Notes: generated by a model from the sequence alone, not told the origin. A DNA stretch of 64,000 nt from Desulfosudaceae bacterium (GCA_963674745.2 CAXXDV010000001.1:2528001-2592000), one strand, 5' to 3'. Shown: positions 18,119-46,618, numbered from the stretch's first letter. Program-made: numbers and translations.

Positions 18119-18130
18119 GAGGCTGTCTGT

Positions 18131-19342: not shown

Positions 19343-19469
19343 GCATCCGGGCATGAAAACCGGTTAAGGTCGAATTCGTCAGCGGCTAACCTGTATCCGA
19401 GGCGTTACAGCCGGCAGCCTTCGAATCCGAGAACGGCGGGAAACCGCATTATATATCCGGGGTGAAAAT

Positions 19470-20504: not shown

Positions 20505-20584
20505 CAGGCAACAGTGTTTTTCCTTTGCACATCGGCAGGCCTGTGGCCGGAATGTGCCGGACTTATTTTGTGGGTTTTTGAAAA

Positions 20585-21775: not shown

Positions 21776-22986
21776 AAAGAAAACGGCCCTTAACCGGTAT
21801 TCGTGTTCTGGATTTGTCCCACAGCTGGGCGGCCCCGCATTGTGGCAGAATCCTGGCGGACTTCGGCGCCGAGGTGATCAAGGTCGAGTATATCAGAAGG
21901 CTCTGCCTTCTTCGGGGGGCAAAAAAAGACCCGCAGATATATAACAATCACCCCGGCTGGCTGCAGGTGAACAGAAACAAATATGCCATCACGTTAGACT
22001 TGAAAGAAACGGGCGATCGTGAGATATTTATAAATCTCATCAGGATTTCCGATGTGCTGATCACGAATTCAAGGACCGGTGTCATGGAAAAGCTTGGCTT
22101 CGGGTATGCCGATATTATCAAGATTAAAAAAGATTTAATCGTCCTGTCCATGTCTTCTTTCGGAAACACGGGGCCATATGCTTATTATTCGGGATACGGT
22201 GCTGTCTTTGAAGCCGTTGGCGGCATTAACAGCCTTACCGCTTATGATAAGGACAGCCGGCCCTGCCGGATCAAGGAAGTTGATGTCACAAACGGCTCGG
22301 CCGGCGCAAGCGCCGTAATGACGGCACTTATTTATCGTCAAAAAACAGGGCGGGGACAATATATCGACCTGTCACAGCTTGAAGCCGCCACCCATGCAAC
22401 TATAGGTGAACATTTACTGGCATTTGAAATGGACGCGGAACAGACCCTGCCGAACGGTAACCGGCATTGGAAGTATGCGCCCCGGGGATGCTACCGGTGT
22501 AAAGGGGATGATAAATGGGTCGTTATTACTGTCCGGTCAGAGGGTCAATGGGAACGGTTTTGTGACGTTCTGGGACATCCCGAGTGGAAAACGGATGGAC
22601 GGTTTATGTCCGTTTCGCAAAGGATTGTCAACCATGATGAATTGGACAAATTGATTGATACCTGGACCGGTGTGCGTGAAAACATGGAAGTCATGACCCT
22701 GCTTCAGGAAAATAATATTTGTGCCGGTGCGGTACTTGATGTGGAAGACCTCGGCGGAAATCGTCACCTGATTGATAGAGATTACTTTGTTTGTGAAGAA
22801 GAATCCTCTGATATGCGTTTTTTGGGGATGCCTTTTGTTTTGTCCCGGGGCGCCGGGAGGGTCGCATGGCGCGGGCCTGCACTGGGCAGTCATAACGAAC
22901 ATGTCCTGTGTGATTTACTTGGGATGTCAAAAAAAGATGTCAGGCCTTTGACGGCAAATGAGGTCGGCACAGCCTTTGATAAATAG
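21772..22986 (+). CDS. Class III (CaiB/BaiF) CoA-transferase subunit, probably catalytic
   Basis: LTGIRVLDLS, LADFGAEVIKVE, NRNKYAITLDLK, EVDVTNG (Asp retained) and GPALGSHN; ATGA overlap with the previous gene. Confidence 0.88.
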   Translation: MKRKRPLTGIRVLDLSHSWAAPHCGRILADFGAEVIKVEYIRRLCLLRGAKKDPQIYNNHPGWLQVNRNKYAITLDLKETGDREIFINLIRISDVLITNSRTGVMEKLGFGYADIIKIKKDLIVLSMSSFGNTGPYAYYSGYGAVFEAVGGINSLTAYDKDSRPCRIKEVDVTNGSAGASAVMTALIYRQKTGRGQYIDLSQLEAATHATIGEHLLAFEMDAEQTLPNGNRHWKYAPRGCYRCKGDDKWVVITVRSEGQWERFCDVLGHPEWKTDGRFMSVSQRIVNHDELDKLIDTWTGVRENMEVMTLLQENNICAGAVLDVEDLGGNRHLIDRDYFVCEEESSDMRFLGMPFVLSRGAGRVAWRGPALGSHNEHVLCDLLGMSKKDVRPLTANEVGTAFDK

Positions 22987-23078
22987 TCGTTCATAACACG
23001 ATTGCTGCTTGTGCGATTACGGGAGACGTTTATTCAATTAATCCTGTGCAACAGGATGTGAACCGGTAACGGAAAATC

Positions 23079-25418
23079 ATGTATAGCAAAACGGTAAGGA
23101 ATAATGCATGCTCCGGGCTTGACCGCTGGAGTTTCCGAAAGGTGGGGCCGAACGGTCTGGGCGACCCTTATAACTGTTATCCGCATTCAATGGCCTGGTT
23201 CCAGGATCACCTTTATGTCGGCACCACCCGTGCCAACCTTGCCAGCAGGGCCAAGCAGATTCAGAGCAATACCCCTGAAAAAATGAGCAAGGTATGGCCT
23301 GTAAAAATACCCGAAAAGGCCCTGGACAGCCCGCTACGAGCCGAAATATGGCGTTATAATCCGGCTGCCGACGAGTGGCGTAACCTGTACACCGCCCCGA
23401 TGGTGATAGGCATTGACGGTTTTGAAGTGCCCATAAGCGTGGGGTTCAGATGTATGGCGGTGTTCCAGGGGCCCCGTGATTCGTCACCGGCGCTTTACGC
23501 GCCCACCTGGGCCAGTCATCAGACCCCGGCAACAATAATGCTGAAAACGACTGACGGCGTTCATTTTGAAGCGGTATCAGAGCCCGGGCTTGGAATAACC
23601 CAGAACACCCCGAGGTCGTTGCGCGGTATTGTCAGTTTTAAGGGTTACCTCTTCACCTCTCCAGTGGTCGGACAGAAAAGACTGGAACCCAATATCGCCG
23701 GAGAGGCGGTTGTCTATTGCAGCGCTGATCCGGATCATGGCGCCTGGCAGTTTGCCTGTGAAACCAGTTTCGGGGACCCGAATAACGTCAGTGTTTTTCA
23801 CATGGCCGCCTCCGACGAGTATTTTTATGCCGGAACACTTAATATTTACGAGGGATTTCAGATATGGAAAACCGATGCGGAAGGGGGGCCGCCGTTTAAA
23901 TGGAAAAAAGTCGTTTCCAATGGCGCCTATCGGGGAAAATTAAACCAGATGGGGATGACACTGGTCTATTTTAAAGGCTGTATTTTTGTGGGCAGTGCCA
24001 TACAGAATTGCAGCTGGGATCATGACTATAAAGTGGGGCCGGCAGCTCCCGAAGTCATCCGTATCAACCCGGATGACTCCTGGGATCTGATTATGGGAGA
24101 GCCGCGCATGACGCCTGAAGGCCTCAAGGTGCCTTTAAGCGGTCTGGGCCCTGGATTCAGCGATCCTTTTGCGGGTTATATCTGGTCCATGTGTGTGCAT
24201 GAAGGCTGGCTGTACGTCGGCAACGCTGTCTGGGCAAATTTTCTGCGCTATTCTGACCGGCTGGACAAACTGCCCAAGATTCTGCGTAACATACAGCACC
24301 CGGAGAATCTTGAAAAACTTCTTCAAGATTTTGGCGGTTGTGATCTGTGGCGGACCCGTGATGGCGTTAACTGGCGGCCGGTAACCATTAATGGCTTCGG
24401 TAATTGCTTTAACATCGGGTTCCGGAATATGGTTTCATCCCCTTATGGCCTTTTTGTCGGCGCAGCCAATCCGTTTGCGCCCGAGGTGGCTGTGAAGCGG
24501 ATTGCGGGCTGGAAGTATGAAGAAAACCCTGTGGGCGGACTTGAGATATGGTTCGGCTCCCATGAACATGGAAACCCGCCCGGGCGCGCGGAGAATGAAC
24601 TTGTACCCGGAAAGATAGATGACGGCCAATACGTTGTTCTTAAAGAAAATGAAAGCGACGAAGACGCGTTTGAAAGGCATATCAATACCTTTTACGGCAA
24701 CAGCAATTTCCGTCATTTCGGCATGTGGAAGATCGGCATAAATGATGCCAGGGTCGCATGCGAAAACCTGATGGGTGAGATACTGGCCTTTATTCCAGAC
24801 GAGGATGGGCGTGTCCTTGATGTCAGCTGTAACATGGGCGCTTCAACGCGTCGTTTGTCGAAAAGCTTTCCGCCTCAAGCGGTAACAGGAATCACTTCAG
24901 ATGAAGAACTGCTGGCGGTGTGTAAAAGAACGGCTCCTGAAGCAAGATTCCTTTGCGGGAAGATTTCGCGGCTGAACCTTGATGACGCTTTTTTTGATTC
25001 GGCCGTTATGATTAAAGGCTTCTACAAACTCGGGGCGAGAGCCAGGCTATTTTCGGAAATTCATCGCGTGCTGCGGCCGGGTGGACGATTTGTGGGTTTT
25101 GACGTGCTTTATGACCCCCCAAACGCAAATACCGGCTGGCGCAAACTTGATAGACGGAAGCGCCATGTTGAAAATATAGATGAATATCGGCACCTTTTGC
25201 ATGAGGCCGGGTTTGATGATATTATGTTCATCGACGTGACGGAGGCCTGTCTCAATGGTTTCCGGATGCACATGGAAAGATATTTTGCATTGAAACATAT
25301 CGGTGGTGATCTCAATGACGATATGCTGCAAAAAATAAAAGATTTTTTTAAGCCCGATAAACCTGCGGTCAGCGGGTGCTTTTTCGTATTATGCCGCAAG
25401 CCGGAAACGGGGTCGTGA
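23079..25418 (+). CDS. Repeat-containing (beta-propeller-like) protein fused to a C-terminal SAM-methyltransferase-like domain
   Basis: Recurring G(L/F)GDPxN...M...LYVG units in the N-terminal ~490 aa; C-terminal HFGMW, VLDVSCNMG and EIHRVLRPGG. Confidence 0.7.
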   Translation: MYSKTVRNNACSGLDRWSFRKVGPNGLGDPYNCYPHSMAWFQDHLYVGTTRANLASRAKQIQSNTPEKMSKVWPVKIPEKALDSPLRAEIWRYNPAADEWRNLYTAPMVIGIDGFEVPISVGFRCMAVFQGPRDSSPALYAPTWASHQTPATIMLKTTDGVHFEAVSEPGLGITQNTPRSLRGIVSFKGYLFTSPVVGQKRLEPNIAGEAVVYCSADPDHGAWQFACETSFGDPNNVSVFHMAASDEYFYAGTLNIYEGFQIWKTDAEGGPPFKWKKVVSNGAYRGKLNQMGMTLVYFKGCIFVGSAIQNCSWDHDYKVGPAAPEVIRINPDDSWDLIMGEPRMTPEGLKVPLSGLGPGFSDPFAGYIWSMCVHEGWLYVGNAVWANFLRYSDRLDKLPKILRNIQHPENLEKLLQDFGGCDLWRTRDGVNWRPVTINGFGNCFNIGFRNMVSSPYGLFVGAANPFAPEVAVKRIAGWKYEENPVGGLEIWFGSHEHGNPPGRAENELVPGKIDDGQYVVLKENESDEDAFERHINTFYGNSNFRHFGMWKIGINDARVACENLMGEILAFIPDEDGRVLDVSCNMGASTRRLSKSFPPQAVTGITSDEELLAVCKRTAPEARFLCGKISRLNLDDAFFDSAVMIKGFYKLGARARLFSEIHRVLRPGGRFVGFDVLYDPPNANTGWRKLDRRKRHVENIDEYRHLLHEAGFDDIMFIDVTEACLNGFRMHMERYFALKHIGGDLNDDMLQKIKDFFKPDKPAVSGCFFVLCRKPETGS

Positions 25419-25517
25419 GCCTGTCGCGTAAAAATATGGCCATTCCGGCGGGCGTGATTTAATATGTGATGAATAATCGATGCATCCATGGACTGATTAT
25501 TCAAGAACTGAACAGGG

Positions 25518-27452
25518 ATGAAAAAGATGAAAAATATTTTACTGGTAAACCCGAAGTATCGACTGGAAATTCGATGGATTTCCAGCAAGAAGGAAATTGA
25601 TGTAAAAGCGGATTATTTTCCGTTGGGTTTGGGCACTGTCGCGGCACTGACGCCTGAAGGCTGTCATGTGGACATATGGGATGAACTCGTCCGCGGGGAG
25701 GTCGAAAAAGCTGACCTTGACAAAAAGTACGATCTGGTCGGTGTCACCAGTCACAGCGCCAACCTCGGGCGGGCCAATGAAATAGGCGCCTATTTTAAAC
25801 AAAAGGGGATTCTTACGGCGATTGGCGGTCCCGGCGTTACATCAAACTCGCACCGATGCCGCAAGGGGTTTGATATCCTTTTTATAGGGGAAGCCGAACT
25901 GACCTGGCCCAGATTTGTAAGAGAGTGGCAGAGCGGCAGCTATAAACCCGAATACCGTCAGATTGACAAACCGGATATTTTGTCAAGTCCCGCGCCTGAC
26001 TGGCGAAGCATCGAATCTGATGTGGATAAATATGCCATGGGAACCGTCCAGACAACCAGGGGGTGCCCTATCGATTGCGAGTTCTGTGACGTCATCTATC
26101 TGCATGGCCGCCGGCAGCGCTATAAATCCATTGACCAGATATTGAAAGAAGTCCGGGCACTCGAGCAGCTGGGGGTAGAAAGCATCTCTTTTAACGATGA
26201 TAATTTTACGATCGCGCACAAAAGGGCTAAAGATGTATTGCGGGCATTAATCACCTTGAACAACTCTTTTTCAAAACCGTTGCGGTTCATGACCCAGTTG
26301 GGCATTGACATCAGCCGGGATGAAGAAATGCTGGAGCTGCTGGCAGACGTCAATATGTATGAAGTGCTGATAGGCATTGAATCCCCGAATAAAGATTCTT
26401 TAAGAGAGGCCGGTAAATTTAACAATTTGAAAGGAGACCTGGTCGCCGAAGTGCGCAAGGTGCTTTCCTATGGCATTGCCGTGCGGGGCGCCATGATTAT
26501 CGGCTTTGATCATGATGACCAGGATATCTTTGAGCAGCAGTATCAATTTATCCAGGAGACCTGCCTGCCTTCTATCTCCATGCACATGCTTAATGCGCCG
26601 GTGGGCACCAGGCTGTGGCGCAGACTCCATGCGGAAGGGCGGGTGATAGACGCTTTTGCCATAGCGGACAAATCCACCCAGCGGCTGTTTAACAACATTA
26701 TCCCAAAGCGCATGAGCAGAGTGGAGCTGATGGAGGGATTTGCGGATTTGTACGAAAAGCTTTTTAGCTGGGAAAGTTTTAAGGAACGCATGTTCGGATT
26801 CGTTTCGCTGGTAAACCGCCCGCCCAAAATCCTGAGGGAAGAAGAGTCATTGCAGGAGCTGCTGGCCCTTGGGCCGGACATGAACCTTGACAAGGAATCC
26901 TGTGGCGCCCTGGCTGAAATTTTCGAGTTCACTGATAAAACGGCGCCATTCTTGCTGGGGCGGGTCAGGGAACTGGCCATCCAGTTTGTCCGGTACCGTC
27001 ACTCCGCGTATGACTTTATTCCGGGCTTGAGGCAGCAGATAGAGCTGGAATCTTCGGGTAAACTGCAGATCAAACTCGACGACAGGCCGATTCCGATACC
27101 GGATGGTTTCAGGCAGGAATTTGATGCCATATTTCCGTCTGTACAGCAGCGGGCGGTCCGGAATCTGATTGATAAAAGTAAGGTTCCCGAAGTGCTGGTC
27201 GATGTTTTTGTGGACTTTCTTATCCATGAAGAGGGCTTCAGTAAACTGGAGGATTATCATATCACTTACCTGAACGAAATCGTCGACAGTGCCTGTACCA
27301 GGGTGAACGGACAGGCGCCGGCAGGCGCCGTACCGGCGGAGACCGCGGATAACGGGGGCGGGGATGAAAACAGTAAGCGCCTGAAGGATGATGTTCTGAT
27401 CGGCGTGGAGCACGAACTTATGAAAATGCAGCTCGCGCAGCAGGCGGTTTGA
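25518..27452 (+). CDS. B12-binding radical SAM protein with a long C-terminal extension
   Basis: ILLVNP, PLGLGTVAALTP, IGGPG, GEAE, TTRGCPIDCEFC, DDNF, IGIES and IIGFDHD. Confidence 0.9.
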   Translation: MKKMKNILLVNPKYRLEIRWISSKKEIDVKADYFPLGLGTVAALTPEGCHVDIWDELVRGEVEKADLDKKYDLVGVTSHSANLGRANEIGAYFKQKGILTAIGGPGVTSNSHRCRKGFDILFIGEAELTWPRFVREWQSGSYKPEYRQIDKPDILSSPAPDWRSIESDVDKYAMGTVQTTRGCPIDCEFCDVIYLHGRRQRYKSIDQILKEVRALEQLGVESISFNDDNFTIAHKRAKDVLRALITLNNSFSKPLRFMTQLGIDISRDEEMLELLADVNMYEVLIGIESPNKDSLREAGKFNNLKGDLVAEVRKVLSYGIAVRGAMIIGFDHDDQDIFEQQYQFIQETCLPSISMHMLNAPVGTRLWRRLHAEGRVIDAFAIADKSTQRLFNNIIPKRMSRVELMEGFADLYEKLFSWESFKERMFGFVSLVNRPPKILREEESLQELLALGPDMNLDKESCGALAEIFEFTDKTAPFLLGRVRELAIQFVRYRHSAYDFIPGLRQQIELESSGKLQIKLDDRPIPIPDGFRQEFDAIFPSVQQRAVRNLIDKSKVPEVLVDVFVDFLIHEEGFSKLEDYHITYLNEIVDSACTRVNGQAPAGAVPAETADNGGGDENSKRLKDDVLIGVEHELMKMQLAQQAV

Positions 27453-27515: not shown

Positions 27516-28931
27516 ATGGAAGATTTTGTCCCTCAGCTTGAAGGACTGGGCCTTAGCCCGCAGTCACAATTGTTGGTGGCCTATACGCATTTTATGAACG
27601 GGGATGGGGCTCAGGCGATCCAGCGATGTAAAAACGCCCTGAAGATGAACCCTAAATACACCGACGCCCACCTGCTGCTGGCCAAGGTATACGCCGGTCT
27701 TGGAAACAGCGACGAGGCGATGGCGGCGTGCAGGGATGCCCTGGCCGTCGATCCGGATCTGGCCAAAGGTTTCCTGATGCTGGGATCAATTTATCAGGAC
27801 CAGGGTTCGTATCCTGAAGGGATCGCCGCCTGCCGGAAATCGCTGAAAATCGATCCGGATGATCCGACAGGTCATTTTCTGCTTGGCGAGATGTATGCCC
27901 TGCAGGAACAGTTTGAGGATGCCGTGCGTGCCTTCCAAAAGGCCCTGAAATTAAATCCGCAGCTTGAGCTGGCGTATTATAAACTTGCCGCCGCATACCA
28001 GGCGCAGGGGATGACTGCTGAAGCCCTGCAAGAGGTGAGAAAAGCGTTAGAGCTGAATCCCATTGTGGCCCGCACGAGAATCCTTTTAGGTGACATTTAT
28101 TTTGCCCAAAAAGAGTACGAAAAGGCCCTTTCCGAATATCAGGAGGCCCTTACAAACAATCCGCAACTGGCCGAAGCACATCAAAAAGCAGGTGAAGCCT
28201 ATTTCAAGCTGGAGAAGACCCACCAGGCTATTTTGGAGTATCGGATTTCATTGCTCATTAACGCAAAATCGGTTGAGGCCCATGTCGGGCTTGCCCATAT
28301 TTATTTTACGACCGGCCGGTATGGCGTGGCGGTTTCCGAATATAAGGCGGCCTTGCATTTGAATCCACATTTATTGTCGGCTCGTGCCGGGCTTGCCGAT
28401 GCCCATGTCATGAATGAACAGTATGCGGAGGCGGTCGATCAATATCGCGCCGCCCTTGAACTGGCAGAGGTTAAATGTGAATCCGGCGATCAATGCCTGG
28501 AAAATGAGCAATATAATGAGGCGATTGCTTTATACCGGTCAACACTGGGCCTGGATGAGGCGCTGCATCCCGTTCATGACAAAATCAAGACAAGCAGTTC
28601 ATGGCATCCTCTGGTAAGCAGGAGGAAGCATGAACGGATCCCGATGAGAGTCCCTGCGGAGATCCGGACGAAGGATGGTGTTCCTTACAGTGTCGAGAGC
28701 GTTGATGTTTCTAAGCAGGGTATTTTAATTGAAAGCAGCAAGCCCATACAGGTCGGTTCTGAAGTAGAGGTTTTGCTTTTGCCTGAAGGCGAAAAAGATG
28801 CGATCCCCCTTGTCGGCCGGGTTGTCAGGGTCGCAAACCCGGATCGTCCTGACAAGCAGTTCGGGATTGAGCTGGCACCCGATGCCGATGATGCGTGGGG
28901 TGCTATTTTAGGTGAGGACTGTATCATGTAA
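27516..28931 (+). CDS. TPR-repeat protein with a C-terminal PilZ domain
   Basis: About nine TPR units (A...LG.....G....A.....KAL..NP); C-terminal SRRKHERIP and DVSKQG. Confidence 0.88.
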   Translation: MEDFVPQLEGLGLSPQSQLLVAYTHFMNGDGAQAIQRCKNALKMNPKYTDAHLLLAKVYAGLGNSDEAMAACRDALAVDPDLAKGFLMLGSIYQDQGSYPEGIAACRKSLKIDPDDPTGHFLLGEMYALQEQFEDAVRAFQKALKLNPQLELAYYKLAAAYQAQGMTAEALQEVRKALELNPIVARTRILLGDIYFAQKEYEKALSEYQEALTNNPQLAEAHQKAGEAYFKLEKTHQAILEYRISLLINAKSVEAHVGLAHIYFTTGRYGVAVSEYKAALHLNPHLLSARAGLADAHVMNEQYAEAVDQYRAALELAEVKCESGDQCLENEQYNEAIALYRSTLGLDEALHPVHDKIKTSSSWHPLVSRRKHERIPMRVPAEIRTKDGVPYSVESVDVSKQGILIESSKPIQVGSEVEVLLLPEGEKDAIPLVGRVVRVANPDRPDKQFGIELAPDADDAWGAILGEDCIM

Positions 28932-29018: not shown

Positions 29019-31364
29019 TTGGCTTTGCCGTCGAAAATACAATTTTCTGAAGTAAAGACGGGTTACGGATTGCAAAAAATACTTCCAAAATATTGTGCAG
29101 ATGTGGAAATTGTGCCGAGATTGGGCAAAGAGGGCGTATTCCGTTATCTTGTCGTTGCCCCGGCTTCTGATGAAGTATATGAGATTGGCGAAAAAGAATA
29201 CTTTATCTTCAAGCAGTTCAATGGAGAAACAGCGCTTGAAACGATACCGGAACGGTTTTTTAACCACTTTAATATCCCATTGAATAAGGATTATCTGGAA
29301 TCTTTTGTTATTCATTTAACATCATTGGGATTGCTGGAATCAGATGCGTCCACAATTGAAGAACATGCCGCTCAAGATGATGACATTAACGGCATTAAGA
29401 TATTTGATCCTGACCGGTTGTTGACCTTTTTGTCGCAGATTTGCTGGTGGTGCTTTACACCTTTTTTTCTGATGTTCACCGGTATTACTTTATTTGTGGC
29501 AATGGGCGTTTTATTTAAATACGGCGGTGACTTGATTTTTGAGGTTCAAATTCTCTGGGAACCGGGTTTTTTCTTCTTTTTCCCTTTATTGGGTATTTTT
29601 GTTATCCAGGTGGCATGTGAGATGGTAAAAGGTATGACCTGTAAATATTACGGGGGGCATGTCCATGAATTCGGCGTATGGTTTGTTTTTAAAATAATTC
29701 CCTTTTTCTATTGCGACCTGACCGATGCCCTGTGGATGGAAAATCAATCCAACCGCAAAAAGATTCTGTCCGCCGGGATTGTTTTCCACTTGTTGCTCTG
29801 GTCCATGGGTATCATCGGCTGGTATGACACACACACCGGATCAAAAATAAACTTGTTTTTTATAATCTTTATCTGTGTTTCTACACTTTATTTGTTTTAT
29901 TCCGTTAATCCGTTTTTTCAACGGGACGGTTATACGCTTTTGAGTGTTTGGCTTAAAACGCCGGATTTGAGAAGCCGGGCGATCAATTTCTGGAAGCACT
30001 GGTTTTTTAAAAAACCGCTGCCTGAACCACTGACAAAAAAACAAGTGCGCAGGTTTAAAGTTTATGGGTTGTCATTGTTTGGATTTCATTTTGTCTTCTG
30101 GTCGGCGCTGTTGGGGTTCATTGGATACCTTCTTGTAGACCTTTTAAATGGAATCGGCGCGATCTTATTTTCAATAATCCTGTTTTTCAGGTTTAACAAT
30201 TATTTGAAGAGGATACCCATGGAATTATTCAATTTTAAAAGGGTTTTATTAAATGAGAACGGCATGGCCAGCCTGCCGGTCAGACGGTTTATTAAATTTG
30301 GCATACCAATACTCATTATTCTGGTTATGCTGATACCCTACCCGTTTTCTGTCGGCGGCGATTTCCGTATCGTGCCTGAAAATCAGCTGGGCATTCGTGC
30401 GCAGGTGGCCGGGGAAATCGGGGAAGTCTTTGTCACGGAAGGGGAATTTGTAGAAGAGGGGCAACCTGTTGCCGTTATGGTCGGACGGGAGCAACGGAAA
30501 ACAGTCGATGAAGTCCAGGCCTCTCTGGACGAGGTGCATGCCAGGCTGGAACTTCTCCGGCAAGGCGCCAAAACCGAAGAGATCCAGCGGGCTGAACAGG
30601 AAGTGGCGACCGCGGCAAAAAGTTTAGAGTACAGCAGCCTTCAAGCCGATAGAAGTGAAGGTATGTTTAAAAACAAGGCGATTTCAGAGCAGGATTATGA
30701 GAACGCTTTAAAGCAGCGTGATCTGGATAAAGAAAAGCTTGAACTGGCCAAAAAGAACCTCGAGCTTGTTAAAAGCGGTGCCCGTGATGAAGCGATCAAG
30801 GCCCTTGAAGCAGAAGAAAGACGCCTGCAAGTCCTTTTTGAGAACGCAAATGAAGATTTGAAGCAAACAACAATGCTCAGTCCTGCTGACGGCAGAATCA
30901 TCACCCCTTTTGTCTCCCAGACCGTGGGGCAATACCTGCAGGTTGGTGACCTGCTCGCTGTGGTTGAACAACCGGGTAATATTATAGCCGAAATACAGTT
31001 GTCCGAAGAAGATGTTGGAGAAGTTGATGTGGGCGCAGAGACCAGGTTAAAGACCTGGGCTTTTCCTCATAATGTGTATTCAGGAAAAGTGCTGGCCATT
31101 GCACCGGTCGCGTTTGAAAAAAGTAAGGGCCGAATCGATCGTGCATTATCTGAAAGAGAATGGCGTGTTGAACAAAAAGAACTGATTCGAAAAAAGGGAA
31201 AGGTTGTAAGGATTATTTCAAGTATGGAAGATCCCGATGGCCTCTTAAAAACAGATATGACCGGATACGGCAAAATCAGATGTGGCTGGCGGCCGGTGGG
31301 GATTGCTTTTACGCGATGGCTGAACCGGTTTATCTTTGTAGAGGTATGGTCATGGCTGCCATAA
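29019..31364 (+). CDS. Fusion of a PqqD/RRE-like domain, an M50 (site-2 protease)-like membrane domain with a degenerate active site, and a HlyD-family membrane fusion domain
   Basis: N-terminal YEIGEKEYFIFKQFNG...LTSLGLLE; CEMVKGMTCKYYGGHVHEFGV, FFYCDLTDA, AGI and NPFFQRDGY; HlyD lipoyl half-motifs GEIGEVFVTEGEFVEEGQ and SPADGRI with a coiled coil. Confidence 0.8.
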   Translation: MALPSKIQFSEVKTGYGLQKILPKYCADVEIVPRLGKEGVFRYLVVAPASDEVYEIGEKEYFIFKQFNGETALETIPERFFNHFNIPLNKDYLESFVIHLTSLGLLESDASTIEEHAAQDDDINGIKIFDPDRLLTFLSQICWWCFTPFFLMFTGITLFVAMGVLFKYGGDLIFEVQILWEPGFFFFFPLLGIFVIQVACEMVKGMTCKYYGGHVHEFGVWFVFKIIPFFYCDLTDALWMENQSNRKKILSAGIVFHLLLWSMGIIGWYDTHTGSKINLFFIIFICVSTLYLFYSVNPFFQRDGYTLLSVWLKTPDLRSRAINFWKHWFFKKPLPEPLTKKQVRRFKVYGLSLFGFHFVFWSALLGFIGYLLVDLLNGIGAILFSIILFFRFNNYLKRIPMELFNFKRVLLNENGMASLPVRRFIKFGIPILIILVMLIPYPFSVGGDFRIVPENQLGIRAQVAGEIGEVFVTEGEFVEEGQPVAVMVGREQRKTVDEVQASLDEVHARLELLRQGAKTEEIQRAEQEVATAAKSLEYSSLQADRSEGMFKNKAISEQDYENALKQRDLDKEKLELAKKNLELVKSGARDEAIKALEAEERRLQVLFENANEDLKQTTMLSPADGRIITPFVSQTVGQYLQVGDLLAVVEQPGNIIAEIQLSEEDVGEVDVGAETRLKTWAFPHNVYSGKVLAIAPVAFEKSKGRIDRALSEREWRVEQKELIRKKGKVVRIISSMEDPDGLLKTDMTGYGKIRCGWRPVGIAFTRWLNRFIFVEVWSWLP

Positions 31365-31373
31365 GGAGGTCTG

Positions 31374-32780
31374 ATGAGAATCGCAAAAACAAATAAAAGA
31401 TATCGCATCATCAGTTTGGTCCAGGCAATTTTAGTGCTCATTATGTTGCCGTCTTTTGCCTTTTCCGGACCGTCTCCGCAACTTGTTACGCTGGACGATG
31501 CCTTTGCTCGTGCCATAACCATTGATGAGCGGATCAAAATAGCCGAAAGAGAAATTACGAAAAGCCATATTCTTTCTGACAAAGCGGCAACTTATTTCTG
31601 GCCGAGCATGTCTGCATATGGCGGGTATTTCGAGGCGAATGAAGAGGTCAGAATCGGATCTTATACCGCAACCTCGGCCACCGGCCTTGGACCTTTTGAT
31701 GTCGCTCCGGTTGACAGAAATGTGATCACGCCCAAGGGCGAATGGCGGGGAAAATTCGAGTTTTTGCAGCCGCTTTACAGAGGGGTGTACTTCCCATTAA
31801 AAGACCAGGCAGAGAGAATTATCGAAAGAAGCACGGAAACGTTCTATCAGACTGTGCAGGATACGCTGCTCGAGGTCGAGCGGGTTTACTTCGAAATTTT
31901 AAAAATCAAGGAACTGGTGCTAAACGCCGAAGAGATTTGCAAACTGGCTCAAGAGGAGCTGGACATTGCAAAAGTTAAATTCGAGGCCGGCCAGGCGACG
32001 GAAGATATCGTTCTCAAGGCCGAACTTTATGTTACAGAAGCGGAACGAAAAAAAATCGAATACCGCAATGACCTGAGATCGGCCAAAGACGGCCTGGGAA
32101 ATCTGATCGGAATAGAGAACGTGTGCACGGATTTTGATGTCGTTAAACCGCATATGCGAACGGTTCCCGGAATGGATTACGAGTTTTTGTTAAATATCGC
32201 CTTTGAAAACAGATACGATCATGAAATCGCATTATTGAACGTGAATGTGGCCGAGTCTGATGTCGATATTGTAAAGGCAAGGTTTCATCCGACACTTCAG
32301 GCGAGCTGGGATTATTACATATCTGACCATGAAACCCTCAGCCGGGACAATGAATCCTGGATCGCCGCCATAACCATGGAGATACCGATTTTAGAGGGTA
32401 CGTTGCGCTTCCGTGATCTGAAGGAGAAAAAAGAGGCGCTGAGTCAGGCGCGACTTAATCTGGACGCAAGAAAAAAGAAAATCAGGATACAGGTTCAGGA
32501 TGCTATTCTTCAGGTCGATAGTTTTGAAGGCATTCTTAAGAACCTGGAAAAACAGGTGGAGCTGGCTCAAAAAAACTACGACATTATATCAACCCAGTTT
32601 GAGTATGGATCGGCCACCAGCCTGTATTTGAATGAGGCGCTGACGGATCTGGACTCGGCTAAAACCGCATTAATTCATGCCACCTACAGCCAGCAGCAGG
32701 TCCTGATTGATCTTGAAAGGGTCCTGGGGATATATGCACATGATTATATTAACAGCATAATTGAAGAGAAAGAGGAATAG
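31374..32780 (+). CDS. TolC-family outer membrane efflux protein
   Basis: AGGAGG RBS; signal peptide; TLDDAFARA, QPLYRG, YFEIL, KFEAGQAT, IPILEG and FEYGSAT. Confidence 0.88.
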   Translation: MRIAKTNKRYRIISLVQAILVLIMLPSFAFSGPSPQLVTLDDAFARAITIDERIKIAEREITKSHILSDKAATYFWPSMSAYGGYFEANEEVRIGSYTATSATGLGPFDVAPVDRNVITPKGEWRGKFEFLQPLYRGVYFPLKDQAERIIERSTETFYQTVQDTLLEVERVYFEILKIKELVLNAEEICKLAQEELDIAKVKFEAGQATEDIVLKAELYVTEAERKKIEYRNDLRSAKDGLGNLIGIENVCTDFDVVKPHMRTVPGMDYEFLLNIAFENRYDHEIALLNVNVAESDVDIVKARFHPTLQASWDYYISDHETLSRDNESWIAAITMEIPILEGTLRFRDLKEKKEALSQARLNLDARKKKIRIQVQDAILQVDSFEGILKNLEKQVELAQKNYDIISTQFEYGSATSLYLNEALTDLDSAKTALIHATYSQQQVLIDLERVLGIYAHDYINSIIEEKEE

Positions 32781-32825: not shown

Positions 32826-33434
32826 ATGACTGACGCGCGTTCAGGGAAGGAACCTCAAGACCGGGTTGTTATCGTATCGGGGTTGCCCCGGTCGGGAACA
32901 TCAATGATGATGCAGATGCTTGAGGCCGGCGGGGCAGAGATTGTGACAGATGGTGTCCGTAAGGCGGACAATGATAACCCCAAAGGATACTATGAGTTCG
33001 AAAAAGTTAAGCAGATGCACGGTGGCACGGAATGGCTTGATGACTGTCCCGGCAAGGCCATAAAAATGGTTTCCCCCCTTTTGTCCCGGTTACCGGATGA
33101 CAGGTCGTACAAGGTTATTTTTATGCGAAGAGACCTTAAGGAGGTCCTTGCCTCTCAAAATGTCATGCTGAAACGGTTGGGACGACAGGGCGCCAATATT
33201 TCCGACGAGGAAATGATTGAGAAATTTGATGCTCATTTGCATGAAGTGGTGGGTTGGCTTGCTGATAAACATAATTTTGATGTTTTATACATTGATTTTA
33301 AAGATGTTGTCCGGCATCCGCATGAAACTGCGGTCGCTGTTAACCGGTTTTTAGAAAAAGCCCTGGATACCACCGCCATGGGTAATGTTGTTGAGCAAAA
33401 GCTTTACCGCCAGAAAAGCGGGGAAGGCGAATGA
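32826..33434 (+). CDS. Sulfotransferase-family protein
   Basis: PAPS-binding loop IVSGLPRSGTSMMMQML; NPKGYYE; 3'-phosphate-binding-like IFMRRDLKEVLASQ. Confidence 0.85.
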   Translation: MTDARSGKEPQDRVVIVSGLPRSGTSMMMQMLEAGGAEIVTDGVRKADNDNPKGYYEFEKVKQMHGGTEWLDDCPGKAIKMVSPLLSRLPDDRSYKVIFMRRDLKEVLASQNVMLKRLGRQGANISDEEMIEKFDAHLHEVVGWLADKHNFDVLYIDFKDVVRHPHETAVAVNRFLEKALDTTAMGNVVEQKLYRQKSGEGE

Positions 33435-34862: not shown

Positions 34863-35255
34863 ATGGCGGGTAAAAAACATATGGCGCGTGAGAAAATAAA
34901 GGATGCGGGGCTGGCCCTGGTGTTGCTCCTGTTATGGGCGGCCTGGGGACTGGCTGATCTCCGTCACCCCTTAATTGCGGTTGCGGCCGTGTGTATCCTG
35001 TTGTGTATGCTGGTGCCCGGTGCGTTCCGGCCGTTTGCTTTTTTATGGTATGGATTGGGGCACGTTCTAGGGGCCGTGGTCTCTCGAGTTGTACTGACGA
35101 TAGTGTATACGCTGGTGGTCGTCCCCGTAGGTCTGGCAAGGCGGCTGGTCGGGAAGGATGCCATGCAGCTGAAACGTTGGAAACAAAATGATGGTTCGGT
35201 GTTTGTGGTGCGCGATCACCTGTATACTCCGGAAGATGTGTCCCATCCCTATTAG
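34863..35255 (+). CDS. SxtJ-family membrane protein
   Basis: Hydrophobic N-terminal helices; WYGLGHVLGAVVSRVVLTIVY...PVGLARRLVGKDAMQLK and C-terminal HPY; next to an SxtK-like gene and a carbamoyltransferase. Confidence 0.8.
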   Translation: MAGKKHMAREKIKDAGLALVLLLLWAAWGLADLRHPLIAVAAVCILLCMLVPGAFRPFAFLWYGLGHVLGAVVSRVVLTIVYTLVVVPVGLARRLVGKDAMQLKRWKQNDGSVFVVRDHLYTPEDVSHPY

Positions 35256-35299
35256 ACCCTACTGGCGAGAAGCAACCCTATGAATAACAAGGATTAAAC

Positions 35300-35449
35300 A
35301 TGGAATTTTTTAAAGATTTGTGGGGCTTTTTAAATAAACGGAAAAAATACTGGCTGCTGCCGATTATATTGGTCCTCTTGTTCTTCGGGGCGCTGATTGT
35401 CCTGACCAGCGGAACCGCTGTGGCCCCATTTGTTTATACGTTATTTTAG
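35300..35449 (+). CDS. SxtK-like (DUF5989) small membrane protein, 49 aa; not in the ORF track
   Basis: Hand translation MEFFKDLWGFLNKRKKYWLLPIILVLLFFGALIVLTSGTAVAPFVYTLF*; AAGGA RBS; family hallmarks RKKxWLxP and APFxYTLF. Confidence 0.88.
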   Translation: MEFFKDLWGFLNKRKKYWLLPIILVLLFFGALIVLTSGTAVAPFVYTLF

Positions 35450-35463
35450 TCCGGAAGCTTGCG

Positions 35464-37338
35464 ATGAACGGACATATCCTCGGCATCTCAGCTTACTACC
35501 ATGACAGCGCGGCCGTGCTTTTGTCAGATGGTGATATTGTGGCCGCGGCCCACGAGGAGCGGTTTACACGCAAAAAGCATGATTCCGCTTTTCCGAAAAA
35601 CGCGGTTCGGTATGTTCTGGAGGAAGGCGCTGTAAGCATAGACGACCTTTCTGCTATCAGTTTTTATGATAAACCCTATCTGAAATTTGAACGTCTGCTG
35701 GAAACCTACCATGCTTTTGCTCCCCGGGGCCTGGTCAGCTTTATGGAGAGCGTACCGGTCTGGATAAAAGAAAAGCTGTTCATGAAAAACATGCTCTGGA
35801 AAGCGCTTGAGGACGTTGCCGGCGCACCGGTAAGGAAACGGCCGAAACTGCTTTTCCCCGAACATCATCTGTCCCATGCGGCCAGCGCTTTTTATGCTTC
35901 ACCCTTTGAATCGGCCGCCGTTCTGACCATTGACGGGGTGGGGGAATGGGCCACGGCTACCATATGTAACGCCGACGCCGGGGGGATGACCATTTTAAAA
36001 GAGTTGTGCTTTCCACATTCCGTGGGCCTGCTTTATTCGGCTTTTACGTATTACTGCGGTTTCAAGGTCAACAGTGGTGAGTATAAACTGATGGGGCTGG
36101 CACCCTATGGCAACCCGAACAGCGAACAATGTCGACGGTTTCGTAAGACAATTGAAGAACAACTGGTGGATATCCGGGAGGATGGGTCGATCCTTCTTAA
36201 CCTGGATTATTTCGACTTCGCCACGGGTTTGCGCATGTGTGCCGATAAAAAATGGGAAAAACTGTTCGGCCTGCCACGGCGTCTTCCTGAAAGCCCGCTT
36301 TCTCAACCATACATGGATATGGCCCTGGCCATTCAACAGGCGACTGAAACCATTGTTTTGCGCCTGGCCGAAACCGCCCGTAAAGAGACCGGCCGAAATA
36401 ATCTGGTCATGGCCGGCGGCGTGGCTTTGAACTGTGTCGCCAACGGGCGGCTGCTCGAGGCCGGTATTTTTGACAACCTGTGGATTCAGCCCGCCGCCGG
36501 TGACGCCGGCGGCGCTCTGGGAGCGGCTTACGCGGCGGATTACATCTGGAACAAACGCCAGTGGCGGCCCGATCCCGACGGGGCTGACAAAATGAAGGGC
36601 GCTTACCTCGGCCCGGCCTTCGAGGCGACTGATGTCCGGCGCATGGCCAGACGTTATGGGGCGGTTTATACGTCCTGCCCTGATATCGATGAACTTTGTC
36701 AAACAACCGCGGCACTTCTGGCCGAAGGCCGGGTGGTCGGCTGGTTCCAGGGCAGGATGGAGTTCGGCCCCAGGGCTCTGGGTAATCGGAGTATTCTCGG
36801 GGATCCCCGGATGCCGGATATGCAGAAGAAGCTCAACCTGAAAATAAAATACCGGGAAGGTTTTCGGCCTTTCGCGCCATCGGTTCTGATTGAAGATGCC
36901 GGGGAATATTTTGATCTAAAGACAGCTTCGCCCTATATGCTGCTGGTAGCGCCGGTTGGAGAAAAACGCCGCCGTCCCGTAACGGAGGGGTATGAACAAC
37001 TGTCCCTGTATGATCGTCTTTACACGCTTCGGTCCGATATCCCGGTGGTGACCCATGTTGATTTCTCCGCCCGTATCCAGACGGTACACCGCCGGACAAA
37101 TGAACGATACTGGCGCCTGATCGACGCTTTTAAATCCTTGACAGGTTATGGCGTGATTGTTAACACCAGTTTCAATGTCCGTGGTGAACCCATTGTCTGC
37201 ACCCCGGAAGACGCTTACCGATGTTTCATGAGAACCGCGATGGATTACCTTGTCATAAACGAGTTTATATTTGATAAACAGCAACAACCCGAATTTTCCG
37301 ATCCGGATGACTGGCAACAGACGTTTCAGCTGGATTGA
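35464..37338 (+). CDS. O-carbamoyltransferase (NodU/CmcH/SxtI family)
   Basis: ILGISAYYHDSAA, EERFTRKKHD, EHHLSHAASAF, DGVGE, GEYKLMGLAPYG, AGGVALNCVAN, GPRALGNRS and NTSFNVRGEPIV. Confidence 0.95.
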   Translation: MNGHILGISAYYHDSAAVLLSDGDIVAAAHEERFTRKKHDSAFPKNAVRYVLEEGAVSIDDLSAISFYDKPYLKFERLLETYHAFAPRGLVSFMESVPVWIKEKLFMKNMLWKALEDVAGAPVRKRPKLLFPEHHLSHAASAFYASPFESAAVLTIDGVGEWATATICNADAGGMTILKELCFPHSVGLLYSAFTYYCGFKVNSGEYKLMGLAPYGNPNSEQCRRFRKTIEEQLVDIREDGSILLNLDYFDFATGLRMCADKKWEKLFGLPRRLPESPLSQPYMDMALAIQQATETIVLRLAETARKETGRNNLVMAGGVALNCVANGRLLEAGIFDNLWIQPAAGDAGGALGAAYAADYIWNKRQWRPDPDGADKMKGAYLGPAFEATDVRRMARRYGAVYTSCPDIDELCQTTAALLAEGRVVGWFQGRMEFGPRALGNRSILGDPRMPDMQKKLNLKIKYREGFRPFAPSVLIEDAGEYFDLKTASPYMLLVAPVGEKRRRPVTEGYEQLSLYDRLYTLRSDIPVVTHVDFSARIQTVHRRTNERYWRLIDAFKSLTGYGVIVNTSFNVRGEPIVCTPEDAYRCFMRTAMDYLVINEFIFDKQQQPEFSDPDDWQQTFQLD

Positions 37339-37362
37339 TGGTGTTGTGGAGGATAAGGCGTT

Positions 37363-37980
37363 ATGGCCAAACGTGTTTTTCGTACCAGAAAAGAAATTAT
37401 AAAACTTTTTGAAGACCTGGGAATTGTATACCGGACCCGCACCCGCGTGGACTGGGAGCCGCTTTTTGATATCCGCCTGGATAAAAGTGCTTATTATATC
37501 GAGAATAAAGAAGAGTTTGAATCTCTTGCCAGGCGTTACGGCCCGTATGTTGAGCGGGAGGCCATGGCACCCGTTTATATCCGTCGGATCGACAAAACAA
37601 TCGGTTACGGTGTTTTCGCCGCCCGGGATATCCGCCGGGGAGACTTTATCGGTGAGTATGCCGGTGTGGTGCAGATTTCAGGAAAACACACGGATTGTTA
37701 TGACGATGACAAGGGATATGAGTCGGACTACAGCTGGTATTATCTGGACGAAATCGAAAAGGGCCCGGAGCTGGAAATAAACGGTCGCTTGGAAGGCAAC
37801 GAGATGCGTTTCGTCAATCACGGTGACAAGCCGAACCTGTGCGTGGAACACACCCTCTACCAGGGGCAGTGGGTATTGTTTTTTACGGCGGCCGTGGATA
37901 TCAAAAAAGATGAACAGCTGCTGATCAGTTACGGGGAGGCTTACTGGGACGAGAAATATCGCGAACAGCTGGCCATTTGA
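37363..37980 (+). CDS. SET-domain protein (putative protein-lysine methyltransferase)
   Basis: GYGVFAARDI, FIGEYAG, RFVNH and DIKKDEQLLISYG. Confidence 0.9.
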   Translation: MAKRVFRTRKEIIKLFEDLGIVYRTRTRVDWEPLFDIRLDKSAYYIENKEEFESLARRYGPYVEREAMAPVYIRRIDKTIGYGVFAARDIRRGDFIGEYAGVVQISGKHTDCYDDDKGYESDYSWYYLDEIEKGPELEINGRLEGNEMRFVNHGDKPNLCVEHTLYQGQWVLFFTAAVDIKKDEQLLISYGEAYWDEKYREQLAI

Positions 37981-37992
37981 GTCTTGTCGGTT

Positions 37993-39294
37993 TTATCGCA
38001 TCATGGACGGCAGAAACAGCGTCAGTTGCGGGAATATGATGATCAGGGCGACCGCCACGATCAGTGCCGCCAGATAGGGCAACGACCCTTTGAAAATGGT
38101 CTCCAGCGGGATCTCCGGCACAACACTTTGTACCACATATACATTGATGCCCACCGGCGGGGTGATGACGCCGATCTGTGTCACCAGAACAATCACCACT
38201 CCGAACCAGACCGGATCGTAATTCAGGGCGGTCACCACCGGATAAAATATCGGGATGGTCAGCATGATCAACGCCAGGGCATCGATAAAACAGCCGCCGA
38301 TCAGAAAAACGAGAATAATCAATGTGATGATCGCGTATGGCGGCAGGTCAAGACTTCCCACCCAGCCTGCGATGGAAAACGGAATCTGGGTGACCGCCAG
38401 AAAATGACCGAAAATCGTGGCGCCGGTGACAATCACCATGATCATGCAGGTGATCCGGGTGGTTTCAGACAGGGCCTGTAAAAAGCCTTTAATTGAAATG
38501 TTGCGCCGCATGACGGCCACCAGCAGGGTGCCAAAGGCGCCGATACCCCCGGCCTCGGTCGGCGTAAAAAGCCCGGCAAACAGCCCCCCCATAACCATGA
38601 TAAACAGCAGAATCGTTTCGGATACCCCGGAAAGAGAGGCGATTTTTTCCGGCCAGGGCGTCCGCTCGCCTTTGGGTGCGCTTTGGGGAAACAGCATGGC
38701 CCAGCCGATGACGACCAGCATGAACAAGGCGGTCAGCAATATACCCGGCAGGATGCCGGCCACGAACAGCCTGCCGATGGACTGTTCGGTCATGATGCCG
38801 TAAATAATAAAAATAACACTGGGCGGGATCAGGATGCCCAGGCTGCCGCCGGCTGCTACGGCACCTGTGCCCAGACTGTCGTGATAATGGTATTTTTTCA
38901 TTTCCGGTATGGTAATGGAGGCCATGGTGGCGGCGGTGGCGTTGGTGGAGCCGCAAATGGCTGAAAAACCGGCGCAGGCGCCGATGGTGGCGACACCCAT
39001 GCCGCCCGGTAGATGCCCGATGAATTTATAAACCGTGCGATAGAGGCGGGTGCTGATACCGGCGTGAAAGGCAATCTGTCCCATCAGAATAAATAAAGGA
39101 ATTACCGTCAGGCTGTATGCTCCGAAAACTGCATAAATATCCTTGACGGCCATGTTCAGGGCGGCGTCCGGCGATATGATCCAGCCAAATCCTACGATAC
39201 CGACCAGTGCCATGGCAAATCCGACGGGCAGGTGGGCAAATATCAGCACCAGCAATGCCGCAAAACCGATGATACCGATCAGGGTGGGTGACAT
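37993..39294 (-). CDS. dctM: TRAP transporter large permease
   Basis: IPLFILMG, LPGG, GSLGILIPPS, FTPTEAG and ITPPVG. Confidence 0.93.
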   Translation of the reverse strand: MSPTLIGIIGFAALLVLIFAHLPVGFAMALVGIVGFGWIISPDAALNMAVKDIYAVFGAYSLTVIPLFILMGQIAFHAGISTRLYRTVYKFIGHLPGGMGVATIGACAGFSAICGSTNATAATMASITIPEMKKYHYHDSLGTGAVAAGGSLGILIPPSVIFIIYGIMTEQSIGRLFVAGILPGILLTALFMLVVIGWAMLFPQSAPKGERTPWPEKIASLSGVSETILLFIMVMGGLFAGLFTPTEAGGIGAFGTLLVAVMRRNISIKGFLQALSETTRITCMIMVIVTGATIFGHFLAVTQIPFSIAGWVGSLDLPPYAIITLIILVFLIGGCFIDALALIMLTIPIFYPVVTALNYDPVWFGVVIVLVTQIGVITPPVGINVYVVQSVVPEIPLETIFKGSLPYLAALIVAVALIIIFPQLTLFLPSMMR

Positions 39295-39807
39295 TTAGCA
39301 GTCTCCCCCGGACGACTCCGATTCGGCAAAAGGACGGATAATCTGGAGTATGAACACCGCGCATAGAACCATGCAACCGGCCGCGATACCGTAAATAAAG
39401 GGGTAAACCGGTACCTGTAATGTCATGGAGACTTCGCCTACCCGGCGTGCATCAGCTGCATATAGCAGGAGGTAGCGTGTGAGCAGAACAAACATAATGG
39501 CGCAGACCACGGTATTGATTCTGTCAATAAAACCGGTAATTCTCGGCGGGAATTTTTTGATCAGAAAGTCCACCGCGATATGCCCGCGATTGATTGAAGT
39601 CGCGGCCAGGGAAAAGGAAATCATCACCGCTCCAAGAAAGCCGACGATTTCATAAGTACCTGGTATCGGGCACCGGAAGAAGCGTAAAACAACATCCGCC
39701 GTGGTCAGCAGCATCATGCCCACTACCGCAACTGCCGCCAGTTGGTTGGCTACAGCCGCGACAGTGGAGATCCAGTAGTCAATTTTCTGAATAAAATGCA
39801 TCGTCAT
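39295..39807 (-). CDS. dctQ: TRAP transporter small permease
   Basis: DVVLRFF, GTYEI and GHIAVD; four TM helices; lies between dctP and dctM. Confidence 0.9.
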   Translation of the reverse strand: MTMHFIQKIDYWISTVAAVANQLAAVAVVGMMLLTTADVVLRFFRCPIPGTYEIVGFLGAVMISFSLAATSINRGHIAVDFLIKKFPPRITGFIDRINTVVCAIMFVLLTRYLLLYAADARRVGEVSMTLQVPVYPFIYGIAAGCMVLCAVFILQIIRPFAESESSGGDC

Positions 39808-39811
39808 ACGG

Positions 39812-40822: not shown

Positions 40823-41094
40823 AACGGCCCTCCTTGTACATGGTTGATTAACGTGACTTCTTATACAATCCGTAAACCGTTTTGGTGTCAAGCCTTTTTT
40901 GGCTCGGTATCAGGGCTTGGTGTTGTGTCCGGGCGAAAAACAGAGAGATAATATTAACCATTTTGTTTTTAAGCAGCAAAAAAAGGTTTGACACTTTTTC
41001 ACCTCAGCGATTAGCATAGAAAAATAACTGGAGGGGAAACCGGCCTTTGCCGTCGGTCACCGAAAAATGATTATCAGGGCCATAAGGAGGTCGC

Positions 41095-46614: not shown

Positions 46615-46618
46615 TGTT

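Follow-up and report, generated by a model that had tools for sequence, protein, structure and literature searches.

A degenerate site-2-protease domain fused to a HlyD adaptor in a pump-less, TolC-linked locus within a polyketide synthase cluster

In the textbook view, a tripartite exporter depends on an energised transporter in the inner membrane. Pump-less "secondary SecA_DEAD / type-I-secretion-related" loci with M50-HlyD proteins have been described, in which no ABC (ATP-binding cassette) transporter was found and for which the M50 proteins were proposed as a possible inner-membrane pore (Kamneva, Poudel and Ward 2015, PMC4452313). The present analysis concerns a window of 64,000 nucleotides from a Desulfosudaceae bacterium (GCA_963674745.2 CAXXDV010000001.1:2528001-2592000; positions are those of this whole stretch), in which one gene (29019-31364, + strand, 781-aa frame) fuses a RiPP (ribosomally synthesized and post-translationally modified peptide) recognition element, or RRE, to an M50-like pseudoprotease and a HlyD adaptor, next to a gene for a TolC-family outer-membrane channel. 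The fusion shares with the loci of that paper the same domain order, clear homology, a TolC nearby and the lack of an ABC transporter. Loci of that type keep HExxH (15/15 in our set) and come with extra adaptors, giant proteins and sometimes a SecA-like ATPase; in contrast, the motif has been lost from the clade of the window, which is also without extra adaptor, SecA paralogue and giant protein and has instead a polyketide synthase (PKS) cluster and a TPR-PilZ protein. The gene content typical of such loci, a SecA_DEAD paralogue with M50-HlyD, GAF-HlyD and HlyD genes, was found only with HExxH relatives, and no SecA, GAF or second HlyD was detected by Pfam among the window open reading frames (ORFs) scanned.

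The best family-level match to the fusion is found in RiPP intramembrane leader peptidases (NF041824; YydH/LiaK, NF058609), in which an RRE likewise precedes an M50 core; unlike them, the fusion has no HExxH, is joined to an adaptor and has no RiPP precursor or maturase nearby. With MacAB-TolC, EmrAB-TolC and HlyBD-TolC the locus shares a MacA/EmrA-like adaptor and an adjacent TolC-family gene, and it differs from these tripartite efflux and type I systems in having no ABC, resistance-nodulation-division (RND) or major facilitator superfamily (MFS) part, and in a membrane domain of protease descent that is covalently joined to the adaptor.

In the fusion, CEMVK stands in place of HExxH (29616-29630, + strand, residues 200-204): both zinc-binding histidines are lost, the glutamate is kept and a lysine occupies the position of the second histidine. 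The NPxxxxDG motif persists as NPFFQRDGY (29907-29933, + strand, residues 297-305) and retains the third-ligand aspartate, D303. Both stretches had been picked out, at exactly these coordinates, by an earlier sequence-only reading of the window, and the placement of CEMVK is upheld by alignment with HExxH homologues. Alignment A1 comprises 28 rows, namely the window, 16 close homologues (42-85% identity) and 11 distant ones (P0023-26, 28-31, 33-35). In the HExxH columns, the distant rows read HEFAHG, HEFGHG or HETAHG without exception (11/11), and in the close group both histidines are missing from every row (17/17), the pattern being [CSGA][EQ]xx[KN]G; D303 and P298 do not vary in any row. 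Several of the distant homologues match Pfam PF02163, and the fusion aligns along their whole length. By this alignment, CEMVK sits exactly at the HExxH position, the M50 zinc and catalytic motif being absent and the aspartate present.

The kinship with M50 proteases is visible only by profiles and structure; Pfam and phmmer gave nothing. PF02163 has no match on residues 1-454 even at E ≤ 10 and none on the whole protein at E ≤ 0.01; no Pfam protease family matches the N-terminal 454 aa, so that Pfam sees the adaptor only, and phmmer with the same 454 aa found no match among PDB sequences. The NCBIfam model NF041824 (daptide intramembrane metalloprotease) covers residues 43-388 with E=1.5e-26 (93 bits, below its cut-off of 300), NF058609 (YydH/LiaK) matches this region weakly (E=2.5e-3), and profile A4, built from 67 N-terminal regions of homologues, weakly matches the archaeal site-2 protease mjS2P (3b4r, E=0.057). 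AlphaFold modelled the whole fusion with a pLDDT (predicted local distance difference test) of 84.0 and a pTM (predicted template-modelling score) of 0.62, and residues 20-445 with 86.8 and 0.70. Foldseek with the latter model returned no match at E ≤ 0.001. In a wide search with VIA-align, the best structural matches of the membrane-core model were four site-2 proteases, SpoIVFB (8vjl_A; Z 9.6, root-mean-square deviation (rmsd) 4.3, 134 residues aligned), two RseP orthologues (7w6z, Z 8.7; 9j83, Z 8.4) and mjS2P (3b4r, Z 7.4), values that agree with the sequence evidence even if a Z below ~13 can be unspecific for helical bundles. By profile and predicted fold together, the membrane core (29412-30008, + strand, residues 132-330, with transmembrane segments TM1-TM4 and a beta hairpin between TM2 and TM3) qualifies as an M50 (site-2-protease) homologue.

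Ahead of the core lies a PqqD-like RRE domain (29076-29354, + strand, residues 20-112), as the sequence-only reading had proposed. Profile A4 matches the RRE structures of the lasso-peptide protein TbiB1 (5v1u, E=1.5e-5) and of PqqD (3g2b, E=1.4e-3), and the model of this region, which has the winged helix and three-strand sheet of the fold, superposes on TfuB1 (6jx3_B) and TbiB1 (5v1u_A) with a Z of 11.0, an rmsd of 2.2-2.3 and 82-83 residues aligned. Three further membrane segments follow the core (30036-30332, + strand, residues 340-438; hydropathy and model). Hydropathy finds seven hydrophobic segments in the fusion, starting at residues 141, 178, 248, 274, 350, 372 and 418, with Lys/Arg-rich loops after segments 2, 4 and 6, from which we infer that the N-terminus, the RRE and the former active site face the cytoplasm and the adaptor the periplasm. 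The adaptor itself (30354-31298, + strand, residues 446-760; lipoyl domain, alpha-helical hairpins and beta barrel) is intact, in line with the earlier description: over residues 457-704 Pfam reports HlyD_3 (1e-13, 52.3 bits, cut-off 22.2) and HlyD_D23 (3.6e-9, 36.6 bits, cut-off 30), and Foldseek finds the HlyD adaptor fold in MacA (9qgy_G, 4.4e-19) and EmrA (8zal_A, 2.4e-17). The protein ends in a conserved C-terminal helix, ...FVEVWSWLP (31299-31361, + strand), whose pattern [VI]EVWSW[IL]P is a hallmark of the clade.

Loss of HExxH extends well beyond the window. Among 80 locus-encoded homologues, the motif is present in 24 of the 25 found by a search of 400 genomes of the same phylum and absent from all 55 from loci L035-L114, which were retrieved through the C-terminal pattern and are therefore a biased sample for motif state. 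A profile search of 1.84 billion representatives, free of this bias, yielded 3101 matches at E ≤ 1e-30; the best 149 of these 3101 representative clusters comprise 101 without a histidine pair, 5 with HxxxH (HQxxH, HSxxH), 37 with HExxH, most of them carrying a VEFWSWW tail, and 6 fragments. Judged from these sequences, the His-less state marks a large clade, not this gene alone. One subclade reads HQxVH (L056, L059, L062, L063, L065, L066, L074), keeping both histidines and the aspartate with a glutamine for the catalytic glutamate; it may bind metal without catalysis, as an intermediate state of decay. Other His-less branches also drop the glutamate (GQxAR) or the aspartate (NPLVKSSG, NPLVKMNG). 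Over 62 His-less rows, a lysine or arginine in the five-residue stretch goes with an acidic residue at 303 in 46, neither is present in 7 and 9 are mismatched, as if a salt bridge now stood in for zinc; since these sequences are related to one another, the count is a lead and not a test. HVHEF (residues 214-218) was considered as a substitute metal site. The same stretch reads GGYVNNFG, GGYVDTFG, GSQVNELG or GGRVYEGG in others and GLRVPQMG in HExxH forms; being conserved in neither group, it is not such a site.

In a tree of 98 rows, the 69 rows without HExxH fall into a single clade (support 100) beside HExxH forms that already carry the tail, which suggested a single loss. This was overturned by wider sampling: in a tree of 234 rows with the motif columns left out, three HExxH rows, P0043 and the pair P0048/P0082, nest among degenerate rows with a support of 99, and the label needs three changes (the motif-state trees, like their supports, are from FastTree only). 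With three HExxH rows inside the degenerate clade, HExxH decayed more than once, and we infer that the protein took on a new role at the base of the tail-bearing clade, after which residues that had become dispensable were lost repeatedly. On this phylogeny, the degenerate fusions descend from protease-active RRE-M50-HlyD fusions. Between the window and L035 (79% identity), dN is 0.134 and dS ~1.19 in the M50-like core, and 0.072 and 1.11 in HlyD, dS being near saturation and the dN/dS ratios accordingly rough. By these substitution rates the dead M50-like domain is under purifying selection, with no sign of drift.

The TolC-family gene (31374-32780, + strand; Pfam OEP 1.1e-47, two repeats; TIGR01844 8.9e-29, below cut-off) begins 10 bases downstream of the fusion and is, by gene context, its putative outer-membrane-factor partner. 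Its position next to the fusion and the lack of an ABC or RND gene in the cluster had both been claimed from the sequence, and both claims hold. A Pfam scan of 44 window ORFs (19 + 25) found no ABC, RND or MFS gene, and the sole transporter among these ORFs is the TRAP (tripartite ATP-independent periplasmic) importer DctPQM (37993-40891); between 5 and 34 kb, the fusion is by hydropathy the only protein with at least three hydrophobic segments. The close relatives are organized alike. In a close set of 12 loci with 80 neighbour proteins (Pfam, E ≤ 1e-8), an OEP gene lies directly downstream of the fusion in 11 of the 11 loci that have downstream DNA, a TPR-PilZ gene lies at most two genes upstream in 8 of the 11 that have upstream DNA, and ABC, RND and MFS proteins number 0 among the 80 neighbours, the remainder of which are methyltransferases, B12 radical SAM (S-adenosylmethionine) enzymes, short-chain dehydrogenases/reductases, esterases, CoA-transferases and sulfotransferases.

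For the wider clade, gene calls of 81 loci (L035-L115) were searched with the window proteins, and Pfam was run on 96 cluster representatives and near singletons. The biosynthetic set accompanies fusions at only 24-30% identity (e.g. L108, L109, L111, L076, L099 and, from a genome of the same phylum, L121); its recurring members are a PKS2-like gene, a small ORF resembling an acyl carrier protein (ACP), a Phosphodiest-family protein, an alpha/beta hydrolase, a large methyltransferase, a protein resembling polyhydroxybutyrate (PHB) esterases and a sulfotransferase. Among the 33 degenerate loci for which four or more neighbours were called, an OEP gene is adjacent in 16 and within four genes in 19, TPR-PilZ lies within two genes in 12, and cluster marker genes are present in 26. 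Marker genes occur in only 1 of 15 HExxH loci, so that loss of HExxH does track with PKS neighbourhoods, a check that the sequence-only reading had proposed.

Of the 15 HExxH loci, all from the same phylum, 12 have one or two additional HlyD adaptors, 7 an OEP gene within three genes and 3 a SecA-like ATPase; the latter is shortened (667-694 aa; L118, L124, L127), and DUF3467 is also found in HExxH operons. Giant proteins adjoin the HExxH fusions of L120, L122, L123, L126 and L131, and 5 of 9 large neighbouring proteins read in these loci have LExLE[DEN]RIV[LFM]DA at their N-terminus, whereas an N-terminal tag of the form [LIVMFWY]xPR was not found in the giant proteins. Shorter HExxH forms lie in YcaO/ThcOx/nitrile-hydratase-leader (YcaO/NHLP) RiPP clusters in L116 and L130. 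No pump gene was found among 62 neighbours of 16 further loci. Since the active HExxH relatives are also pump-less, the absence of a pump characterizes the M50-HlyD family as a whole and is not peculiar to the dead branch.

The TPR-PilZ protein of the window (27516-28931, + strand) is a putative cytoplasmic receptor of cyclic di-GMP (c-di-GMP). It has no hydrophobic segment, and consists of TPR repeats and a C-terminal PilZ domain (PF07238, 3.1e-13, residues 369-453, 50.4 bits, cut-off 22.5) containing RRKHER and DVSKQG, which we take to represent the c-di-GMP motifs RxxxR and [D/N]xSxxG of PilZ domains. Its N-terminus (27516-27575), ahead of the repeats, is among its best conserved parts and follows [FWY][VIL]P[RKQ][LVI]xxLG; P6, L11 and G12 are invariant in nine rows (the window and L035, L036, L038, L042, L043, L044, L046 and L060). 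The first 15-20 residues are possibly a leader-like tag and a candidate partner of the RRE, and they loosely recall the LExLE[DEN]RIV[LFM]DA start of the giant proteins beside HExxH relatives.

Taken together, we see an even chance that the PKS product is exported by a module made up of the TPR-PilZ protein, the pseudoprotease-adaptor and TolC, under the control of c-di-GMP and with the pseudoprotease core as its inner-membrane entry part. The domain order, the strict pairing with TolC in close relatives, the frequent pairing with TPR-PilZ and the joint travel with biosynthetic genes are read directly from the loci. The module would span the envelope with two or three proteins, dedicated to the product of the PKS/sulfotransferase/methyltransferase cluster, the fusion supplying the inner-membrane and periplasmic parts. 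In real site-2 proteases, substrates embedded in the membrane enter laterally and reach a site close to the cytoplasmic leaflet. An amphipathic product synthesized on the cytoplasmic side could likewise enter, or be held in, the pseudoprotease core, the Lys/Arg-Asp pair standing where zinc was, and the core would hand this product to the adaptor-TolC duct. The TPR-PilZ protein might dock on the cytoplasmic face, perhaps with its leader-like N-terminus on the RRE, which would make export depend on c-di-GMP. The sequence-only proposal of a pseudoprotease reused for lipid export is supported in part: the M50-fold pseudoprotease, with histidines gone and aspartate kept, its fusion to an RRE and an intact adaptor, the absence of a pump from the cluster and the adjacent TolC all stand, whereas the dead domain may or may not bind or move a lipid, the cargo may be something else, and a distant pump may take part.

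Parallels for the parts of such a module can be named. An exporter dedicated to a lipid cluster would have its parallel in DevBCA-HgdD, the exporter for heterocyst glycolipids. In alginate secretion, a pump-less polymer route, Alg44 combines PilZ with a periplasmic domain resembling membrane fusion proteins; the locus resembles this arrangement in coupling a c-di-GMP receptor to an adaptor-like protein and differs in that PilZ is on a separate TPR protein, the outer-membrane channel is TolC instead of a porin, and a glycosyltransferase plays no part. Like the rhomboid pseudoproteases (iRhoms), which have membrane clients, the fusion has an intramembrane protease fold that lost catalysis and is still conserved. 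Derlins take part in retrotranslocation at the endoplasmic reticulum, moving substrates across the membrane. Unlike the metallo site-2-protease fold of the fusion, iRhoms and Derlins have the unrelated serine rhomboid fold, are eukaryotic and have no link to an envelope duct.

Several observations weigh against this export module. We know of no precedent for a motor-less duct for small molecules. The retained RRE is a peptide-binding fold, to which a lipid is less well suited than a cargo or partner that is itself a peptide or protein. Complex prediction for the TPR-PilZ protein and the N-terminal 426 aa of the fusion scored 0.48 (runs 0.52, 0.48 and 0.48; best control 0.01). Among 157 solved complexes 116 score at least this high, as do 2 among 215 mismatched pairs, and scores of at most 0.60 account for 18 of the 157 and for both mismatches; the runs agree in at least 98% of contacts with a partner pLDDT of 77, and the predicted contact is thereby weakly supported. 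No OEP gene lies within four genes in 14 of the 33 wider loci, singleton unknowns more than two genes away being outside the scan, and eight further loci were dropped from these counts as the fusion was lost in gene calling. A pump-like gene is present in 4 of the 33: AcrB, at a distance, in L045 and L061, and, in L102 and L104, an ABC exporter of 560 aa encoded two genes upstream; the fusions of these two loci (L102:8204-11956, 1250 aa; L104:8633-11956, 1107 aa) are much longer and carry an N-terminal extension. In L054, which is outside these counts and has no full-length tree row, an MMPL protein is encoded two genes upstream. Some members may thus work with a pump. The genome of the window also encodes adaptor-less ABC exporters (C1:2311755, C1:379863/381856, C1:162981) and FtsX permeases (C1:2302194 and others) that are possible remote partners.

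A bolder form of the export module appears unlikely to us: a ring of site-2-protease pseudoenzymes, each with its own adaptor, would replace the ABC, RND or MFS pump and pick up its cargo, a polyketide lipid of amphipathic character, from the inner membrane, the RRE docking a leader-like TPR-PilZ tag and c-di-GMP acting as the gate. We hold as equally unlikely that the fusion is an adaptor with an elaborate membrane anchor whose true pump (ABC, MFS or other) is encoded elsewhere, the dead M50 domain regulating or tethering it. Tripartite systems with unlinked components exist, and the exporters and permeases just listed, together with the ABC and MMPL neighbours in L102, L104 and L054, speak for this explanation. 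The sequence-only reading had called for a search of the genome for an orphan ABC partner. In the 5.55 Mb genome, all eight full-length RND pumps and four FtsX/MacB-type permeases lie each beside their own adaptor, so that none is visibly left over for the fusion; the adaptor-less ABC exporters, of a kind that occurs in most genomes, neither support nor exclude a remote partner, and MFS proteins were not searched genome-wide. A cluster that keeps TolC and adaptor over such a sequence range would be expected to keep its pump too, yet none appears beside the fusions of the 12 close or the 16 further loci, and seven conserved membrane segments under purifying selection far exceed what an anchor needs.

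Somewhat less likely again, the module would handle a peptide or protein and not a lipid, apparently like its protease-active ancestors, the RRE binding a leader-like peptide and the dead core passing the cargo uncut, for example a secreted or surface protein acting with the lipid. The well-kept RRE fold fits this explanation, as do the HExxH relatives, which adjoin giant proteins with their shared N-terminal motif or sit in RiPP clusters; however, the degenerate fusions have neither a giant protein nor a precursor-like small ORF as a conserved neighbour; lipid and polyketide enzymes recur beside them, and their sole conserved small ORF looks like an ACP. Quite unlikely, in our view, is a role as scaffold or sensor, in which the fusion would assemble the biosynthetic enzymes at the membrane or control them there and use HlyD-TolC for envelope contact rather than export. 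Pseudoproteases are often regulators, as are the iRhoms and other rhomboid pseudoproteases controlling partner proteins, and the two PilZ proteins of the cluster (27516-28931 and 18131-19342) point to heavy regulation, but an intact MacA/EmrA-like adaptor with long hairpins and a dedicated TolC (11/11) are costly parts with one known use, an outward duct. That the fusion is still a protease, with other residues such as HVHEF as metal ligands, is highly improbable, for although the closest relatives retain E201 and D303, no alternative histidine pair is conserved and other branches drop the glutamate or the aspartate as well.

The cluster around the fusion includes two genes resembling PKS and polyunsaturated fatty acid (PUFA) synthases (5271-16188, + strand; Pfam), with the orders ketosynthase (KS)-acyltransferase (AT)-ACP-ketoreductase and KS-AT-ACP-dehydratase-phosphopantetheinyl transferase. 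A conserved small ORF (16190-16504, + strand) between PKS2 and the phosphodiesterase-family gene is probably ACP-like from its ...DLEFASIDIVQ... pattern. The tailoring set that follows (16514-27452, + strand; Pfam, NCBIfam), and that recurs beside degenerate fusions, encodes a Phosphodiest-family protein, an alpha/beta-hydrolase-PilZ protein, a PHB-depolymerase-like esterase, two family III CoA-transferases, a 779-aa methyltransferase and a B12-type radical SAM enzyme. The C-terminal PilZ domain (Pfam, 4.3e-9) of the alpha/beta hydrolase (18131-19342, + strand), relatives of which recur beside the fusion in distant loci, is a putative second c-di-GMP input. Downstream of TolC, a sulfotransferase-family protein (32826-33434, + strand; Pfam) is a recurrent neighbour, with 26 members in 22 loci at +1 to +8 genes. 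After the cluster, 34863-37980 holds a three-segment membrane ORF (weak SxtJ match, 1.6e-6), a carbamoyltransferase and a SET-domain protein. A second gene group at 45622-60616 encodes four B12-binding and one SPASM radical SAM proteins, two glycosyltransferases and three polytopic proteins of 7-11 hydrophobic segments, two with TPR repeats and one without any Pfam family.

Three candidate starts are available for the fusion: TTG 29019, the start of the frame; TTG 29070, giving 764 aa; and GTG 29103, giving 753 aa, at which the public copy of the protein (P0003) begins (V29). The column of residue 18 is a methionine in at least 90% of 74 aligned homologue rows, and the window codon there is TTG 29070. 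Because the N-termini of homologues fall at this column, TTG 29070 is the likely start and the product would have 764 aa. At the other end of the gene, the last 21 codons (31299-31361) show a proportion of synonymous differences (pS) of 0.13 relative to L035, compared with ~0.58 in the rest of the gene, in a small sample; the low synonymous change possibly reflects constraint from the TolC start 10 bases downstream.

The TPR-PilZ partner, pump-lessness across the family including its active forms, and a pseudoprotease state that defines a large clade go beyond the sequence-only reading. The pump-less locus has been in print since 2015 (PMC4452313), to which the present analysis adds the dead branch, the PKS setting of that branch and the TPR-PilZ partner; our literature search found no publication on the dead M50-HlyD branch, some proteins of which may be listed in the supplements of Kamneva et al. 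2015, outside that search. A large conserved family with an adaptor and TolC and a dead intramembrane protease in place of a pump either challenges the tripartite rule or points to a new way of energising or gating export. If the proposed export module is true, this would be a bacterial intramembrane pseudoprotease with a transport-related role, and c-di-GMP signalling would be tied to the export of a polyketide lipid, possibly a surfactant or a lipid of the biofilm matrix. The dedicated export genes would then provide a handle on a widespread orphan PKS cluster.

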